Positions 24,001-30,000 of a stretch of DNA of 49,391 nt are shown here, in pieces. The stretch is taken from the IMG/VR virus record IMGVR_UViG_2939521961_000014; one strand, 5' to 3'. Position 1 is the stretch's first letter. The number at the start of each line of letters is the position of its first letter. Source of the stretch: a virus (taxonomy: Duplodnaviria; Heunggongvirae; Uroviricota; Caudoviricetes). Position numbers: made by a program.

Positions 24001-27000
24001 TAATTTATCCCCCGCCCGCGCACACTGATTTGCCCCCTTCGCAATAAGGGTTTTCAGATGGTCAAGATGGCGCGGTGTTAAATCAGGAAACTGTCGTTGC
24101 ATGGATAAAGGGATGGAATCAAGCGTACTGGATAACGCCATTGCCAGCTTACTGAGGGCAAAAATACAGAACCCGGTGTCAATAAGTTTTCCTTTTGACA
24201 CCTCATTTTTTAACTGCTGTGTAACAGCCTGTTCTGCTGTCAGTTCCCATCTGGCAATAAGCAATTTTTCCTCATAGTCGTCTTCGCTATCGCCATCAGG
24301 CACATCGTTTTTACTTCTCCTCAGATACGATATGTAAAAATCGCGCCAGGCATCCAGATCCAGTTGCCCTCGCTTATTTGATATCGGGGCACCCGGCAAT
24401 TTCTGCAATCTGCGAAGCTGGCGATCGGTCAGACTTAAATGCCTGGCAACTTCAGTCTGCGTAGCCACTCCTCACCTCGCAAAAACTCTCACCTCACAAT
24501 CACAACAAAACCGGTCATGTCCGGTTTACATATCTATTTTTTGTGCATGTCCGGTTCACAGAAGACCTGTTTTTATATTTTTCATATAGTTAACTTGAAG
24601 AGAAACCGGACATGGTTCCCGGAAAATTTTCATAAATAGCGAAAACCCGCGAGGTCGCCGCCCCGTAACCTGTCGGATCGCCGGAAAGGACCCGCAAAAT
24701 GATAATAATTATCATCTATATGTCACAACGTGCATCTACGCCATCAAACCACGTCAAATAATCAATTATGACGCAGGTATCGTATTAATTGATCTGCATC
24801 AACTTAACGTAAAAACAACTTCAGACAATACAAATCAGCGACACTGAATACGGGGCAACCTCATGTCAACGAAGAACAAAACCCGCAGAACAACAACCCG
24901 CAACATCCGCTTTCCTAACCAAATGATTGAACAAATTAACATCGCTCTTGAGCAAAAAGGGTCTGGGAATTTCTCAGCCTGGGTCATTGAAGCCTGCCGT
25001 CGGAGACTAACGTCAGAAAAGAGAGCATATACATCAATCCAAAGTGATGATGAATAAACATCCCGGTTTCTTCCACCATCGCACCGGAAAAGCGACTATG
25101 AGGGTAACCCTGCGTCTGTCAGCACAGTAAAACCCGGTGTGCATCGTTTTTGATTATTCCCGCACACTCACGCAGAAGGAATTCCCCGTCGGGCTACGGT
25201 CATGGTTAATGCGGGAATACGGCGACGATACAGCGCAGCTAAAAGGGTAATGGACAGATAGAGCGGTTTATTTCATTCCACAGGATTCTGAGTGCCCCCC
25301 TCCTCCAATAGGCTGAGCATCCACCTATATAGTTTTAATTTTCATCAATCCATTTAACTATCGTTTAATTGTTGTCACATAGGATTCTGCCGTTTTTAAC
25401 AATGCAGGATAATAAGATGAAAAAAATGTTGTTTTCTGCCGCTCTGGCAATGCTTATTACAGGATGTGCTCAACAGACGTTTACTGTTGGAAACAAACCG
25501 ACAGCAGTAACACCAAAGGAAACCATCACCCATCACTTCTTCGTTTCGGGAATTGGACAGGAGAAAACTGTTGATGCAGCCAAAATTTGTGGCGGCGCAG
25601 AAAATGTTGTTAAAACAGAAACCCAGCAAACATTCGTAAATGGATTGCTCGGTTTTATTACTTTAGGCATTTATACTCCGCTGGAAGCGCGTGTGTATTG
25701 CTCACAATAATTGCATGAGTTGCCCATCGATATGGGCAGCTCTATCTGCACTGCTCATTAATATACGTCTGGGTTCCTTCCAGTTGTTTTTGCATAGTGA
25801 TCAGCCTCTCTCTGAGGGTGAAATAATCCCGTTCAGCGGTGTCTGCCAGTCGGGGGGAGGCTGCATTATCCACGCCGGAGGCGGTGGTGGCTTCACGCAC
25901 TGACTGACAGACTGCTTTGATGTGCAACCGACGACGACCAGCGGCAACATCATCACGCAGAGCATCATTTTCAGCTTTCGCATCAGCTAACTCCTTCGTG
26001 TATTTTGCATCGAGCGCAGCAACATCACGCTGACGCATCTGCATGTCAGTAATTGCCGCGTTCGCCAGCTTCAGTTCTCTGGCATTTTTGTCGCGCTGGG
26101 CTTTGTAGGTAATGGCGTTATCACGGTAATGATTAACAGCCCATGACAGGCAGACGATGATGCAGATAACCAGAGCGGAGATAATCGCGGTTACTCTGTT
26201 CATTGCTGACCCCACAAACAGATTTCACGCTCAATCTCACGACGAGTCATGAGACCTTTCCATTGCTTACCGCCAGCATATGTCCAGCGACGTAGCTGAT
26301 CACATGCGCCTTTGATATCGCCCTGGTTTATTTTGCGAAGAAGCGTCGATGTTCTGAAATTGCCAGCACCCACGTTGTAAACGAATGAGTAAAGAGCGCC
26401 GCGCGTTGTTTCCGGTATATCGACTTCGATGTACGGGTTAATTTGTCTGGCGACAGTGGCAAGGTCTTTATTCAAGAGTGCTTTGCATTCTGCTTTGGTA
26501 TACGTTTTACCGGGAATGATGTCTTTTCCGGTGTGTCCGTGACATACAGTCCATACGCCAACGATATCTTCGTATGGTATGTAGCTGACACCTTCCAGGC
26601 CATCGTCACCACTCGGACCAGTGATGAGCACAGACGCTATGGCAACAGCCCCACCACCAATAGCAGCAGCAACAGCCTTGCGTAATGATGGCGACATTAT
26701 TCACCTCTCGCAGCCTTACGCTTATCTTCTTTAATCTTGAAATAAAGGTTTGTCAGATACGTCAGCAAGCCAAACACCAGGCTACCCAATACGCCTATTG
26801 CCACCCACTGGGATGGGGAGACTTTGTCCAGCAACTGCAGTAGCCAGTATCCCGTCCCCACCGCTGACGTGGTGTATGACACACCTGTTGTTATTTTTTC
26901 CATCTGGTACATACCCCGTCTCCCGTTATCCGGAAGCTGACAACAATAAAAAGCCACCAGTTAATTCCTGATGGCCCTGATGCATAAACGTCATAATACC

Positions 27001-30000
27001 TGACTGTTATGATTGACAATAATGATAATGTTTATATAGAAAGGTTCCCGATGTGTGTTACATATCATTTCTCCACGGGGAATATCCCCACGCCAGCGCA
27101 GACTCTTTTACCCGTTCTCTTCTGCGCTGGCTCTTTTTTATTATGCTGCTGCATTTACCTCTGGCACCATGCTTTCTATCTCAACACAATACGTGGTACT
27201 TCTTGTAACCAATATCATAACGATTAATCGACATAGAATTTCTCCCGTGTACAGGAACAGAGTTAAAAAGCCGGAACCGGAATCAAATCACAGGATGACC
27301 ATCTGCCAGTGGCAGGTCATAAAAAAAAGGCCGCGCCATGCGCAGCCAGAACTCACAAGGAAAATGATAGAAGGAAATAACATTAGTGATGTACGCATGG
27401 CGCCTCCCGCTAAGTTCTGCAATGATCAAACAGAACTCGCTACGTGCCCTTAAAACTCGATCATTTAGCCCCTCCAAGGAGGATTCACCATGCGGTTGAT
27501 TTTTTAATAAACAGTAAACAAAAAAGTCAAGAATTATTCATTCTGTTCTTTCATCATCGGCCACAGCAATACCACAATGCCGCAGACCAGAGCGCCATCA
27601 GTCAGTACCAACATTATCCTGCTGGTGAAATCCATCATCACCATCACTAAAAGCAGGATCACAACAGCAAGCAGACACAGTTTATAAAACAATGTTCAGA
27701 AAACGCATTCAGCATGCCTAAGGTTCTATTCCTACGAATAGCCAACTTGCAACTTAAAATATTATTTATGCAGCCAATTAAATTCTGGTCCTTACAATAT
27801 CAACCTGAAGATTCTTATCTTGTGCTGATTGATAAATGACAAACCTTTTACTACCTGCATTGAAAGAAGTAGACAAAACCAGACAATTATCATAACGAGC
27901 AAGAACATAATACCAACCATCATTATAATTAATCATTTCATATTCTTTCTTAAACTGTGGTTTGTAATATCCTGTCAGAAATGAAAAAAGCCAGAAATAT
28001 GCCACAAAAGCAATCATCACAATCTCAAAAAAATGTTTTTTTATAAATGGCTTATCATAGAAGCATGATACCGATAAAAATCGCCCATAAGATCTTATCG
28101 AAATTGTAACCGCCAGCGCAATCGCTGCTGACAGTAGCAAAAGAGGTACCTGAATCTTCTGTCTCAATATAGAAAACTCAATAATTGCCGGCACAAACAA
28201 TAATTCCACAGCAAAATAAAGGCGAAATACATTTAGCTCTTGCATAGAATGTTTTCTTTTCACTGCGAAAAAGAATACAACACCAATACCCCAACCGATA
28301 AGAAATATAGCAATGACGATAACTGCAAAAAATAAACTTCTGGCAACATCATCAACACCTGCACCTACAATCCACCATGGGAAGCCGTAGTAAAAAGAAG
28401 TACCCCATCCATAGAAATAAGCACTCCCCCATCCAAGGCATCCCATGTAGGCAATAAAAAGTGAAGAACTCCTGAGCAGCGCACCATCCTTCATAACCAC
28501 CCCAATACAAGATGATAACATTGGCTTACAACTCATAACAAAAGCAATTCAATGCCGTCAAGAGGTTACAGGCTAAAAAAACTCTATTACATTGCAGTCA
28601 GCATGTTTACTACACAAATACAATTCAGAGCATAAAAACTACTCGGCGGCAGGTTATTGAGACTCATCAATGACATGTAAAAAACGCCCATTATTGGTGT
28701 CAAGTTTCCCCAAAGTTATTCAAAAAGTCAATATTATGCCGTTAATATGTTGCCATCCGTGGCAATCATGGCGCTAACGTGTGATCGCATTCAAAATGTT
28801 GTCTGCGATTGACTCTTCCTTGTGGCATTGCACAACCAGAGCGTCATACAGCGGCTTAACAGTGCGTGACCAGGTGGGTTGGGTAAGGTTTGGGATTAGC
28901 ATCGTCACAGCGCGATATGCGGCGCTTGCTGGCATTCTTGAATAACCGACGCCTTTACATCTTCCGCACTCTTTCTCAGCAACTATCCCCCACTGCTCTG
29001 TTTTGGCTATATCAACCGCACGGCCTGTACCGTGGCAATCTCTGCATCTTGCGCCCGGCGTAGCGGCACTACGGCAATAATCCGCATAAGCGAATGTTGC
29101 GAGCACTTGCAGTACCTTTGCCTTAGTATTTCCTTCGAGCTTTGCCACACCACGGTATTTCCCCGATACCTTGTGTGCAAATTGCATCAGATAGTTGATA
29201 GCCTTTTGTTTGTCGTTCTGGCTGAGTTCATGCTTACCGCAGAATGCAGCCATTCCGAATCCGGCTTGTGATTGCGCCATCCCCATAGCAGCCATCACAT
29301 CAGTACCAGAAAGAGAGTCAGAAGCCGTAGCCCGTGGTGAATCGCTCATCATCGGGCTTTTTGGCGAATGAAATTTAGCTACGCTTTCGAGTCTCATGCG
29401 CCTTCTCCCTGTACCTGAATCAATGTGAGGTTTCCGCAGAACACTGCGCCAGTATCGATATACATCTGGTTGGCAAATTTGAGTGGTTTCACTGCTGGCG
29501 TATGACCAAAGATGAACGTGTCCGCGCCTTTGATTTCTTTCACGATCCCGTCTTGTGAGTTGCTGATTCGTTCGCGGTTCCAGATTACCTGCTGATGATC
29601 AACTGGCTTTCCAAACTCGTATTTATCACAAGGATAATCGGCGTGGCAGATGACATATTTTTTTCCTTTACTCACCAGTTCGATGATTAACGGAAGTTCA
29701 TCTGCTTTATGGGCAAGAGCTTTAGCCAGAATTTCTTTGTCGTAATCGAGATTAAAGAACCAGCCACCGCCATTAAGCAGCCAGTGATTGACGTTTCCAC
29801 GCTCTGATAAGCCATCAATCATCATTTGCTCATGGTTTCCACGTACAGCTCTGAACCAGGGGAATGTGATTAATTCCAGGCATTCTACGTTCTCTGTACC
29901 GCGATCAACCAAATCGCCCACCGAGATAAGCAGGTCTTTTTTGGTGTCGAATCCTATCGTCTCCAGTTTTTTCATCAGGTTCGTGTAGCATCCGTGCAGA

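Follow-up and report, generated by a model that had tools for sequence, protein, structure and literature searches.

Shiga toxin (Stx) phages carry stxAB in the slot between the late antiterminator gene Q and the lysis genes; there, the toxin genes lie behind the terminator tR' and depend on Q, and they are followed by a nanS-p esterase gene. The lambdoid genes bor and lom, in turn, are expressed in the lysogen. A further kind of cargo is situated after Q in coliphage 434 and in two prophages, PP2 and PP4, of enteropathogenic Escherichia coli (EPEC) E2348/69: a gene for a membrane protein of 238 amino acids (aa), tfpB, annotated in phage 434 as 'putative membrane protein' (CPT_434_68) and followed there by a gene annotated as 'TciB'. 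Here, we compare with these systems the interval at positions 26958-28773 of a viral DNA sequence of 49,391 nucleotides (Caudoviricetes; IMG/VR record IMGVR_UViG_2939521961_000014), which is called the window below and to whose full length the coordinates refer. This interval is probably a copy of the known mobile cargo ('moron') cassette, situated in the slot between Q and the holin gene and encoding TfpB as a five-helix protein that is expressed in the lysogen. The cassette, its protein families, and its small RNAs (sRNAs) are already known as sequences from phage 434, EPEC, RefSeq, Pfam, and PHROG, and the sRNAs have been published.

Organization of the cassette between Q and the holin gene

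The interval is precisely the gap between the stop codon of Q and the longest open reading frame (ORF) of the holin. The late genes of this lambdoid prophage lie on the minus strand, and the slot is bounded upstream by a lambda-type antiterminator Q of 207 aa (28774-29397, -; Pfam PF03589, E 1.2e-57), which is RefSeq WP_001235460.1 in E. coli O26 strain 11368 and in EPEC PP4, and downstream by an S21-type class II (pin)holin of 71 aa (26697-26912, -; Pfam PF04971, E 2e-32; RefSeq WP_000284524.1). Both the ORF map and the composition confirm an AT-rich insert of around 1.8 kb between Q with its late promoter pR' and the holin gene: the G+C content within 27600-28500 is 0.29-0.40, whereas it is around 0.50-0.53 in Q and the lysis genes. 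The initial annotation of this DNA had set the insert against a gap of only around 200 bp in lambda; a lambda-type relative without the cargo is indeed short at this place, but the distance from Q to the holin gene in HK542 amounts to 433 bp, and as the cassette is absent, the slot is empty there. The insert thus separates genes that adjoin each other in related phages and is atypical in base composition. Its reading as moron-type cargo of late-strand orientation, in the slot that stxAB occupies in Stx phages, is supported, and the earlier placement of a moron in the stx slot directly downstream of pR' was right.

The absence of ORFs resembling AB5 toxins and of tRNA genes, likewise stated in that annotation, is borne out: neither ARAGORN nor Rfam reveals tRNA genes in the whole window, EltA and EltB give no tblastn match in the window, and according to the ORF map and Pfam no ORF of the Q-holin interval contains a toxin domain. 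The insert resembles stxAB in its position in the Q-to-S slot, in its atypical base composition, and, in its relatives, in its location upstream of nanS-p. In contrast, there is no relation in sequence or fold to stxAB, lom, or bor, and TfpB is a predicted inner-membrane protein and neither a toxin nor an outer-membrane or lipoprotein factor.

Within E. coli, O26:H11 strain 11368 and many enterohemorrhagic E. coli (EHEC) genomes carry the 1.8-kb interval with 100% identity, and at least 80% of it is present in 586 of 5426 complete genomes. In the coliphages 434 and 2B8, the identity of the interval is 98%, and the somewhat larger stretch 26601-29413 is 99.47% identical to EPEC prophage PP4. 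The protein is RefSeq WP_001302581.1 in O26 and in both EPEC copies (E2348C_0686 and E2348C_1012). With phage 434 and EPEC PP2, the window shares the identical 238-aa sequence, a DUF3927 gene and the sRNA gene pasD downstream of it, and the position after Q. Despite this agreement, 434 and PP2 possess a Q82-like Q, an intact terminator before the cassette, lpxR upstream, and nanS-p after it (the esterase gene follows the cassette also in 2B8), whereas in the window and EPEC PP4, Q is of the lambda type, the terminator is broken, lpxR is absent, and the esterase gene is deleted. Read along the late strand of the window, the order would be pR' with its Q-utilization site (qut), the broken tR', tfpB, the DUF3927 gene, PasD1 with its terminator, a deletion scar, an Esr41-like sRNA in antisense orientation, a second terminator, and the holin gene.

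Another arrangement of the slot is found in E. coli prophages (loci L012-L014, positions around 2600-9800) whose tfpB homolog has 68% identity. Here, the order is Q, a DNA methylase gene, two tRNA genes, STnc100, tfpB, an AgvB-like RNA, lpxR, pmrD, and nanS-p; the STnc100-type sRNA (80.9 bits, above gathering) is situated upstream of tfpB, whereas in the window it is situated downstream.

The tfpB gene of the window (27778-28494, -) encodes 238 aa of PHROG 1521. The open frame extends over 27778-28536 (-) and comprises 252 aa when counted from the first ATG; position 28494 (methionine 15) is taken as the gene start because homologs of 237-238 aa align from that methionine, and the motif GGGGTGG lies directly upstream of it. 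The protein of 238-252 aa previously proposed on the late-gene strand is thus real, with 238 aa as the family-supported form. Compared with the allele of E. albertii, tfpB shows 29 synonymous and 7 non-synonymous codon changes, and compared with another Escherichia allele 39 and 14, respectively; given 156 synonymous and 558 non-synonymous sites, the ratio of non-synonymous to synonymous substitution rates (dN/dS) is around 0.07-0.10. tfpB is a genuine coding gene under purifying selection.

Concerning the protein, phenylalanine, tryptophan, and tyrosine make up 21% of the residues. The hydropathy profile displays four strong hydrophobic segments and one aromatic and glycine-rich N-terminal helix, and the AlphaFold2 model (37 homologs; mean predicted local distance difference test, pLDDT, 67.8) shows five long helices followed by a beta domain of five strands at the C-terminus (residues 184-235), the same strands being obtained when this domain is modeled alone (pLDDT 71.6). 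Hydropathy and model agree with the five aromatic-rich hydrophobic helices and the soluble tail of around 60 aa described before, the tail being the beta domain of around 55 aa. The loops 77-88 and 137-154 contain three and four lysine or arginine residues, and the positive-inside rule predicts that TfpB spans the inner membrane with its N-terminus inside, its C-terminus outside, and the beta domain in the periplasm. As the invariant residues are aromatic ones, glycine, and arginine, and a catalytic-looking set is not evident among them, the sequence suggests that TfpB serves in binding or scaffolding rather than as an enzyme.

Terminators, promoters, and expression in the lysogen

The predicted late promoter pR' and qut (28690-28731, -) were located by alignment to the annotated pR'/qut of HK542 (HK97-group phages, 90-92%). 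The -35 element is TTGACT (28731-28726) and the -10 element GAAACT (28708-28703), compared with TAAATT in HK542, and a pause-like element AATAAT comes next. Phage 434 possesses the hairpin AAACCCGCTGCCGAGTGGGTTTTTTTT directly before the shared cassette (-13.3 kcal/mol, z -3.1), whereas the window exhibits a broken tR'-type terminator (28634-28655, -) at the mosaic joint of a Q-lambda module and a 434-type cargo module: the recombination joint falls inside its hairpin AACCTGCCGCCGAGTAGTTTTT (-4.6 kcal/mol, z -0.3). A terminator scan from pR' to tfpB yields none, and the leader is no more stably folded than shuffled sequences (z 0.10). For a tR' that would isolate tfpB from pR', named in the initial annotation as a finding that would speak against its reading, there is no credible candidate by scan or folding, so that the terminator between promoter and gene that characterizes a Q-dependent late gene is missing. 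The first strong terminator after pR' is that of PasD1, 1.38 kb downstream.

Directly upstream of tfpB, candidate promoters of the cassette itself are situated at 28512-28561 (-), namely TTGACG (28561-28556)-N18-TATGAG and TTGTTA-N18-(TG)TATCAT (28541-28512), the latter being the site picked by the promoter scan. In the copies on plasmids of enterotoxigenic E. coli (ETEC), in E. coli prophages, and in Citrobacter, homology to the window begins around 70 nt before the ATG, and the element TTGAC(G/T)...TAT is kept in these copies.

Expression can be assessed from published RNA-seq data of EPEC, obtained from uninduced cultures under activating conditions and given as DESeq2 baseMean (PMC8550237). 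These values, which are not length-normalized and derive from reads that are not cleanly assignable between the near-identical EPEC copies, amount in PP4 to 6.0 for Q, 147 for tfpB, 5.4 for the holin gene, and 8652 for PasD1, and in PP2 to 69 for Q, 226 for tfpB, 37 for DUF3927, 102 for the esterase gene, 3.5 for the holin gene, 11017 for PasD2, and 2936 for lpxR (PMC8550237). The tfpB mRNA of PP2 was also captured on Hfq, with 57 chimeras with PasA (PMC8550237). According to these data, the uninduced lysogen transcribes tfpB but keeps Q and the lysis genes almost silent. The earlier designation of the protein as Q-dependent was therefore too strong, and tfpB behaves as a lysogen-expressed moron and not as a strictly Q-dependent gene; it agrees in this with bor and lom, in contrast to stx.

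A promoter inside the cassette is the likelier source of this transcription, because PP2, with its intact upstream terminator, gives a similar tfpB signal. Transcription would start downstream of Q, most likely from a promoter that moves together with the gene; as no terminator intervenes, the other possible source is leaky read-through from pR'. It would stop at the hairpins of PasD1 and before the holin gene, so that lysis stays off. After induction, Q-modified polymerase would, in line with what is established for lambda Q, read through both hairpins and thereby add TfpB in a late burst.

That tfpB is a true late gene, mainly Q-antiterminated and acting in lysis or progeny release (as a timing factor, an antiholin-like protein, or an aid to periplasmic release), would fit its location: on the late strand it directly follows pR', without a terminator between them in this prophage, and it lies immediately upstream of the holin-endolysin-spanin cassette. 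This is nevertheless very doubtful, as the gene is expressed in EPEC while Q and holin are silent, two strong terminators precede the holin gene, and relatives occur without lysis genes; moreover, lambda, HK97, and HK542 lack tfpB and yet lyse normally, and a protein of 238 aa and five helices finds no holin family match in Pfam or PHROGs.

Relatives of TfpB and possible functions

The family of TfpB, which the initial annotation did not recognize, could be resolved as PHROG 1521 (function unknown; E 2.1e-154, profile positions 1-222 of 222) and as Pfam PF27470 'TfpB', the label that the identical protein bears in a precomputed collection; the protein is annotated in phage 434, and a Salmonella ortholog has partly been studied. 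NCBIfam, PADLOC, and a copy of Pfam without the PF27470 model give no family match. The family is small (70 representatives at 50% identity among 1.84 billion proteins), and a homolog search with a divergent profile mostly returned the same enteric proteins again. Intact frames of 237-238 aa are found across genera at 45-68% identity, and distant full-length members keep the motifs AYxYGWG...YG(F/Y)PWW...ARSL and YY(V/I)L as well as the architecture. The protein of the window conforms to this architecture of around 237 aa, in which an aromatic and glycine motif at the N-terminus is combined with four to five hydrophobic helices and with a beta domain at the C-terminus. Many database entries of the family are truncated or frameshifted copies. 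Sequence and structure searches reveal no relative of known function or solved structure, a Foldseek comparison of TfpB with viral structures gives nothing at E <= 0.001, and a literature search for the name 'TfpB' turned up only papers on the type IV pilus, chemistry, and anesthesia.

In a scan of one genome per species, the family is present in Escherichia, Salmonella, Pasteurellaceae (Aggregatibacter, Glaesserella, Actinobacillus, Pasteurella, Rodentibacter, and Avibacterium), Conchiformibius, and Moraxella (M. bovis, M. lacunata, and M. equi). The Moraxella ORF lies between pilin genes (PF00114) and adjoins an IS110-type invertase; this ORF of the pilin inversion region is probably the namesake tfpB of PF27470. 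The ORF of M. bovis (tblastn E 2e-19, 27% identity over 240 aa) agrees with TfpB in length and in the motifs AYxYGWG...YGYPWW...ARSL near the N-terminus and YY(I/V)L near the C-terminus, but it belongs to the chromosome, where pilin genes and the Piv (IS110-type) invertase flank it, and is not part of a phage; in M. lacunata and M. equi, the ORF is truncated to around 195 aa. In Yersinia, a tfpB homolog directly follows Q. On the Shigella invasion plasmids pINV (106 Shigella plasmid records), a homolog is found between insertion sequence (IS) elements, and invasion plasmids of enteroinvasive E. coli carry it too. The copy of Shigella flexneri pWR501 (locus positions 5001-5717; 57% identity) has the most conserved motif altered to GWVSAYSYGWG, and downstream of it an unannotated ORF of 138 aa with a signal-peptide-like N-terminus and no Pfam match is situated.

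Intact copies of tfpB without phage genes exist in Salmonella, in Citrobacter rodentium, on ETEC plasmids and Shigella pINV, in Pasteurellaceae, and in Moraxella. On the ETEC plasmids, eltAB adjoins the homolog, and in Salmonella, sseJ. The gene lpxR is located near tfpB in phage 434, in EPEC PP2, and on the C. rodentium chromosome, and both lpxR and pmrD in other E. coli prophages. In Glaesserella parasuis (locus L025, 6974-10017), a chromosomal homolog is convergent with, and directly adjoins, cdtC-cdtB-cdtA.

Experimental data exist for the relative STM1630 (SL1344_1560) of Salmonella Typhimurium, which likewise has 238 aa (46% identity) and is AT-rich, horizontally acquired, and situated beside steB and sseJ. 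Its identity was confirmed by the sequence of a deletion primer, which encodes NSSMLLAYLGGLGWG, and by its position adjoining sseJ. It differs from the window in being chromosomal, in having no phage genes, DUF3927, or PasD nearby, and in its mapped promoter, which lies far upstream. STM1630 has been reported to possess its own transcription start site and to be bound by H-NS, to be expressed in medium inducing Salmonella pathogenicity island 2 (SPI-2) and in macrophages, to belong to a virulence-regulator-dependent gene set, and to be co-regulated with SPI-2 and PhoP-type envelope genes. Signature-tagged mutants are reported to be attenuated in calves and chickens; a deletion in strain 4/74 increased intramacrophage replication, and in a screen the mutant was hypermotile. 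These data favor host-associated envelope physiology over a role in the phage cycle.

On these grounds, we tentatively prefer, at somewhat less than even probability, the reading that TfpB is not a protein of the phage cycle but serves lysogenic conversion and acts in the envelope of cells growing in association with a host. Several points weigh against this account and the expression on which it builds. The AlphaFold2 models are only moderately confident (pLDDT 68 and 72). The -10 element of pR' differs from that of lambda, the candidate tfpB promoter is, judged from sequence only, weak with a poor -10, and the Salmonella start site lies elsewhere, around 200 nt upstream, so that conservation of the promoter is limited; the reservations about the EPEC counts given above apply as well. 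Moreover, the functional data come from the Salmonella ortholog and not from E. coli TfpB, no relative having a known function, and the phenotypes of STM1630 are modest and partly inconsistent: its deletion causes no growth defect in LB medium, and when it was re-tested in a follow-up study of motility, it was not among the mutants that the abstract reports as altered. Finally, the adjacency to virulence genes may reflect hitch-hiking of AT-rich cargo.

The same adjacency could also mean that TfpB, situated in the inner membrane with its beta domain in the periplasm, helps an exported virulence cargo, be it in maturation, release, or vesicle loading of a periplasmic toxin or surface factor or in lipid A remodeling linked to LpxR and PmrD; its joint mobility with such genes would then reflect a joint function. 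The neighbors eltAB, cdtABC, lpxR, pmrD, and the Moraxella type IV pilin, the stx slot, and the co-regulation of STM1630 with SPI-2 and PhoP-type genes all suit this explanation. We consider it unlikely, however, since these neighbors have neither fold nor export route nor destination in common, the loci differ in gene order and orientation, most copies in Pasteurellaceae lie among housekeeping genes, and the window itself contains neither lpxR nor a toxin or esterase gene. Similarly improbable in our view is the wider proposal that the whole TfpB family consists of unrecognized inner-membrane 'cargo helpers' that co-mobilize with, and serve, the heat-labile toxin (LT), the cytolethal distending toxin (CDT), the occupant of the stx slot, LpxR, and pilin. 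If true, such helpers would aid periplasmic release or vesicle loading, or would couple envelope remodeling to virulence-gene expression, and with the Hfq-dependent sRNAs beside them they would make up one integrated module of lysogenic conversion.

TfpB, alone or jointly with the DUF3927 peptide, has further to be compared with P22 SieA, T4 Imm, and HK97 gp15, phage or prophage inner-membrane exclusion proteins that are dispensable for the phage cycle. A superinfection-exclusion or anti-phage protein that blocks DNA entry or aborts infection could well look like TfpB, which is a polytopic membrane protein expressed in the lysogenic state from the variable cargo slot of a prophage and whose partner resembles TciB of P1, the PHROG name mentioning colicin resistance and inhibition of cell division. 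Yet PADLOC assigns neither TfpB nor DUF3927 to any of its families, there is no similarity in sequence or fold to known Sie or Imm proteins, and the phenotypes in Salmonella are host-related. In contrast to SieA, Imm, and gp15, TfpB has stable non-phage chromosomal orthologs: its gene is conserved in single copy on the chromosomes of Pasteurellaceae, Salmonella, and Citrobacter and is present on virulence plasmids, which points to a cellular role. These stable chromosomal and plasmid copies without phage context make roles in exclusion and in lysis timing less likely, and we regard exclusion as a rather improbable function.

Small RNAs, deletion scar, and further features of the prophage

In addition to the protein-coding part, the interval contains genes for two sRNAs, a pair of strong terminator hairpins, and the scar of a deletion, none of which had been seen in the initial annotation; PasD1 and the Esr41-like sRNA are the best-characterized products of the interval. 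Downstream of tfpB follows first the gene for a DUF3927/TciB-like membrane protein of 52 aa with a TTG start and two hydrophobic helices (27534-27692, -; Pfam PF13064, E 3.4e-14 for residues 7-50; PHROG 1470, E 2.5e-17; WP_000499454.1). A small membrane product had been anticipated at this place, but the peptide of 36 aa suggested at 27525-27635 comprises only the C-terminal two thirds of the DUF3927 protein. The literature on TciB and DUF3927 was uninformative.

PasD1 (27321-27493, -) is an Hfq-dependent sRNA of 173 nt that is identical at 173 of 173 positions to NC_011601 1060260-1060432 of EPEC E2348/69 (coordinates from Table S6 of PMC8550237), where it was validated by Northern blot and by ligation and sequencing of interacting RNAs (RIL-seq; PMC8550237). 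The window sequence contains its seed UGUGAG and a 3' stem-loop with a U-tract; the terminator consists of a hairpin at 27329-27347 followed by U8 (-17 kcal/mol), and TTGACT (27530-27525)-N18-TAAAAA-N7-G is its putative own promoter. The Rfam model STnc100 (RF02076) matches 27318-27523 over its full length with 37.7 bits (E 4.9e-6), i.e., below the gathering cut-off of 47. PasD and STnc100 are described as related in a 2026 preprint, which also places pasD directly upstream of the esterase gene in phage 2B8 and reports Esr41 near PasD (PMC13192938). Two further ORFs of this part were rejected: a lipoprotein-like ORF of 36 aa (ATG at 27398, Shine-Dalgarno sequence GGGAGG) lies inside PasD1, with GGGAGG belonging to the conserved sRNA structure and a frameshift in 434, and for CPT_434_70, a 'putative membrane protein' of 62 aa in 434, the equivalent frame of the window contains stops and overlaps PasD.

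The deletion scar (27125-27210, -) marks the place of the 1.85-kb nanS-p (SASA) esterase gene, of which the first 25 or so nucleotides and the 3' flank remain: at around 27210, homology to the 434 locus skips from 4428 to 6183, and it does likewise in comparison with EPEC PP2 and 2B8, while NanS-p gives no tblastn match in the window.

On the opposite strand to the late genes, an Esr41-like, Hfq-bound sRNA (27052-27141, +) ends in a G+C hairpin with a T-run. The Rfam model Esr41 (RF02676) matches it over the full model length at 32.3 bits (E 0.0013); at a gathering threshold of 102, it is not a member of that family, and it differs from Esr41 by a 25-nt insertion that replaces a 7-nt one in the terminator loop and by its annotation as a coding sequence in EPEC and RefSeq. 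In EPEC, the identical sequence appears as 'E2348C_1013', with a RIL-seq site at 1060613-1060654 that corresponds to 27099-27140 of the window, a baseMean of 2064, a 7.5-fold lower level in the hfq mutant, and 263 chimeras with the 5' untranslated region of entC (PMC8550237). The RefSeq 'hypothetical protein' WP_012578864.1 (27055-27453, +), antisense to PasD1, is probably a spurious ORF, because the Esr41-like sRNA inside it is the best explanation for the high, hfq-dependent 'expression' in EPEC. Published RIL-seq data further name PasD2 and MgrR as partners of the lpxR mRNA of EPEC PP2 (E2348C_0684; locus 321-1280) (PMC8550237). RNAs of the cassette and their neighbors may regulate each other.

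The interval ends just upstream of the holin gene with a second hairpin with a T-run, resembling an intrinsic terminator (26950-26978, -; found by the terminator scan), of -15 to -16 kcal/mol (z -3.3, with none of 200 shuffled sequences as stable); phage 434 has an annotated terminator at the corresponding position. The holin gene is followed by that of a SAR endolysin (26200-26697, -), which together with Rz/Rz1 belongs to the lysis cassette.

The abundance of the sRNAs raises the question whether they are the truly selected products and the tfpB ORF a decaying passenger. The levels of PasD1 and the antisense RNA exceed that of tfpB mRNA 14- to 60-fold, truncated or frameshifted copies are common in the databases, and the most conserved motif is altered in the Shigella copy. 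Against these facts stand the strong excess of synonymous changes, the frames that are intact across genera at 45-68% identity, and the tfpB copies on plasmids and chromosomes that occur without PasD, so that we hold a mere passenger to be highly improbable.

Elsewhere in the prophage, an ORF of 617 aa (31687-33540, +) lies opposite to the nin genes; with a G+C content of around 0.31-0.36, no match in Pfam or PADLOC, and the annotation as a hypothetical protein in O26:H11 strain 11368, it is a second orphan cargo candidate. The Bor/Iss serum-resistance lipoprotein gene (25369-25710, +; PF06291), a classical lambdoid moron, is oriented divergently to the lysis cassette. At 40901-40959 (+), the sequence perfectly matches the lambda cIII thermoregulator RNA element (Rfam RF01804, 88.5 bits), which indicates a lambda-type pL/cIII region. 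The ORF of the large terminase (22278-24044, -) ends around 40 residues before the end of the GpA nuclease profile and leaves 400 nt to the portal ORF; the large terminase of O26:H11 strain 11368 is a RefSeq pseudogene with an internal stop. Judged from its sequence, the prophage is probably unable to package DNA.

With respect to annotation, the interval is corrected in that its best-supported products are two Hfq-binding sRNAs, one RefSeq 'hypothetical protein' probably being one of them. Around one ninth of the complete E. coli genomes, mostly of EPEC and EHEC lineages, carry the cassette in a slot that elsewhere holds Shiga toxin, and with TfpB they carry a conserved, lysogen-transcribed protein whose relatives lie beside the genes of LT, CDT, SseJ, LpxR, and pilin in at least four bacterial families. 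Phage 434 and EPEC E2348/69 offer ready genetic systems for tfpB, and its behavior as a lysogen-expressed moron, not a late gene, points to phenotypes of the envelope and of host colonization.

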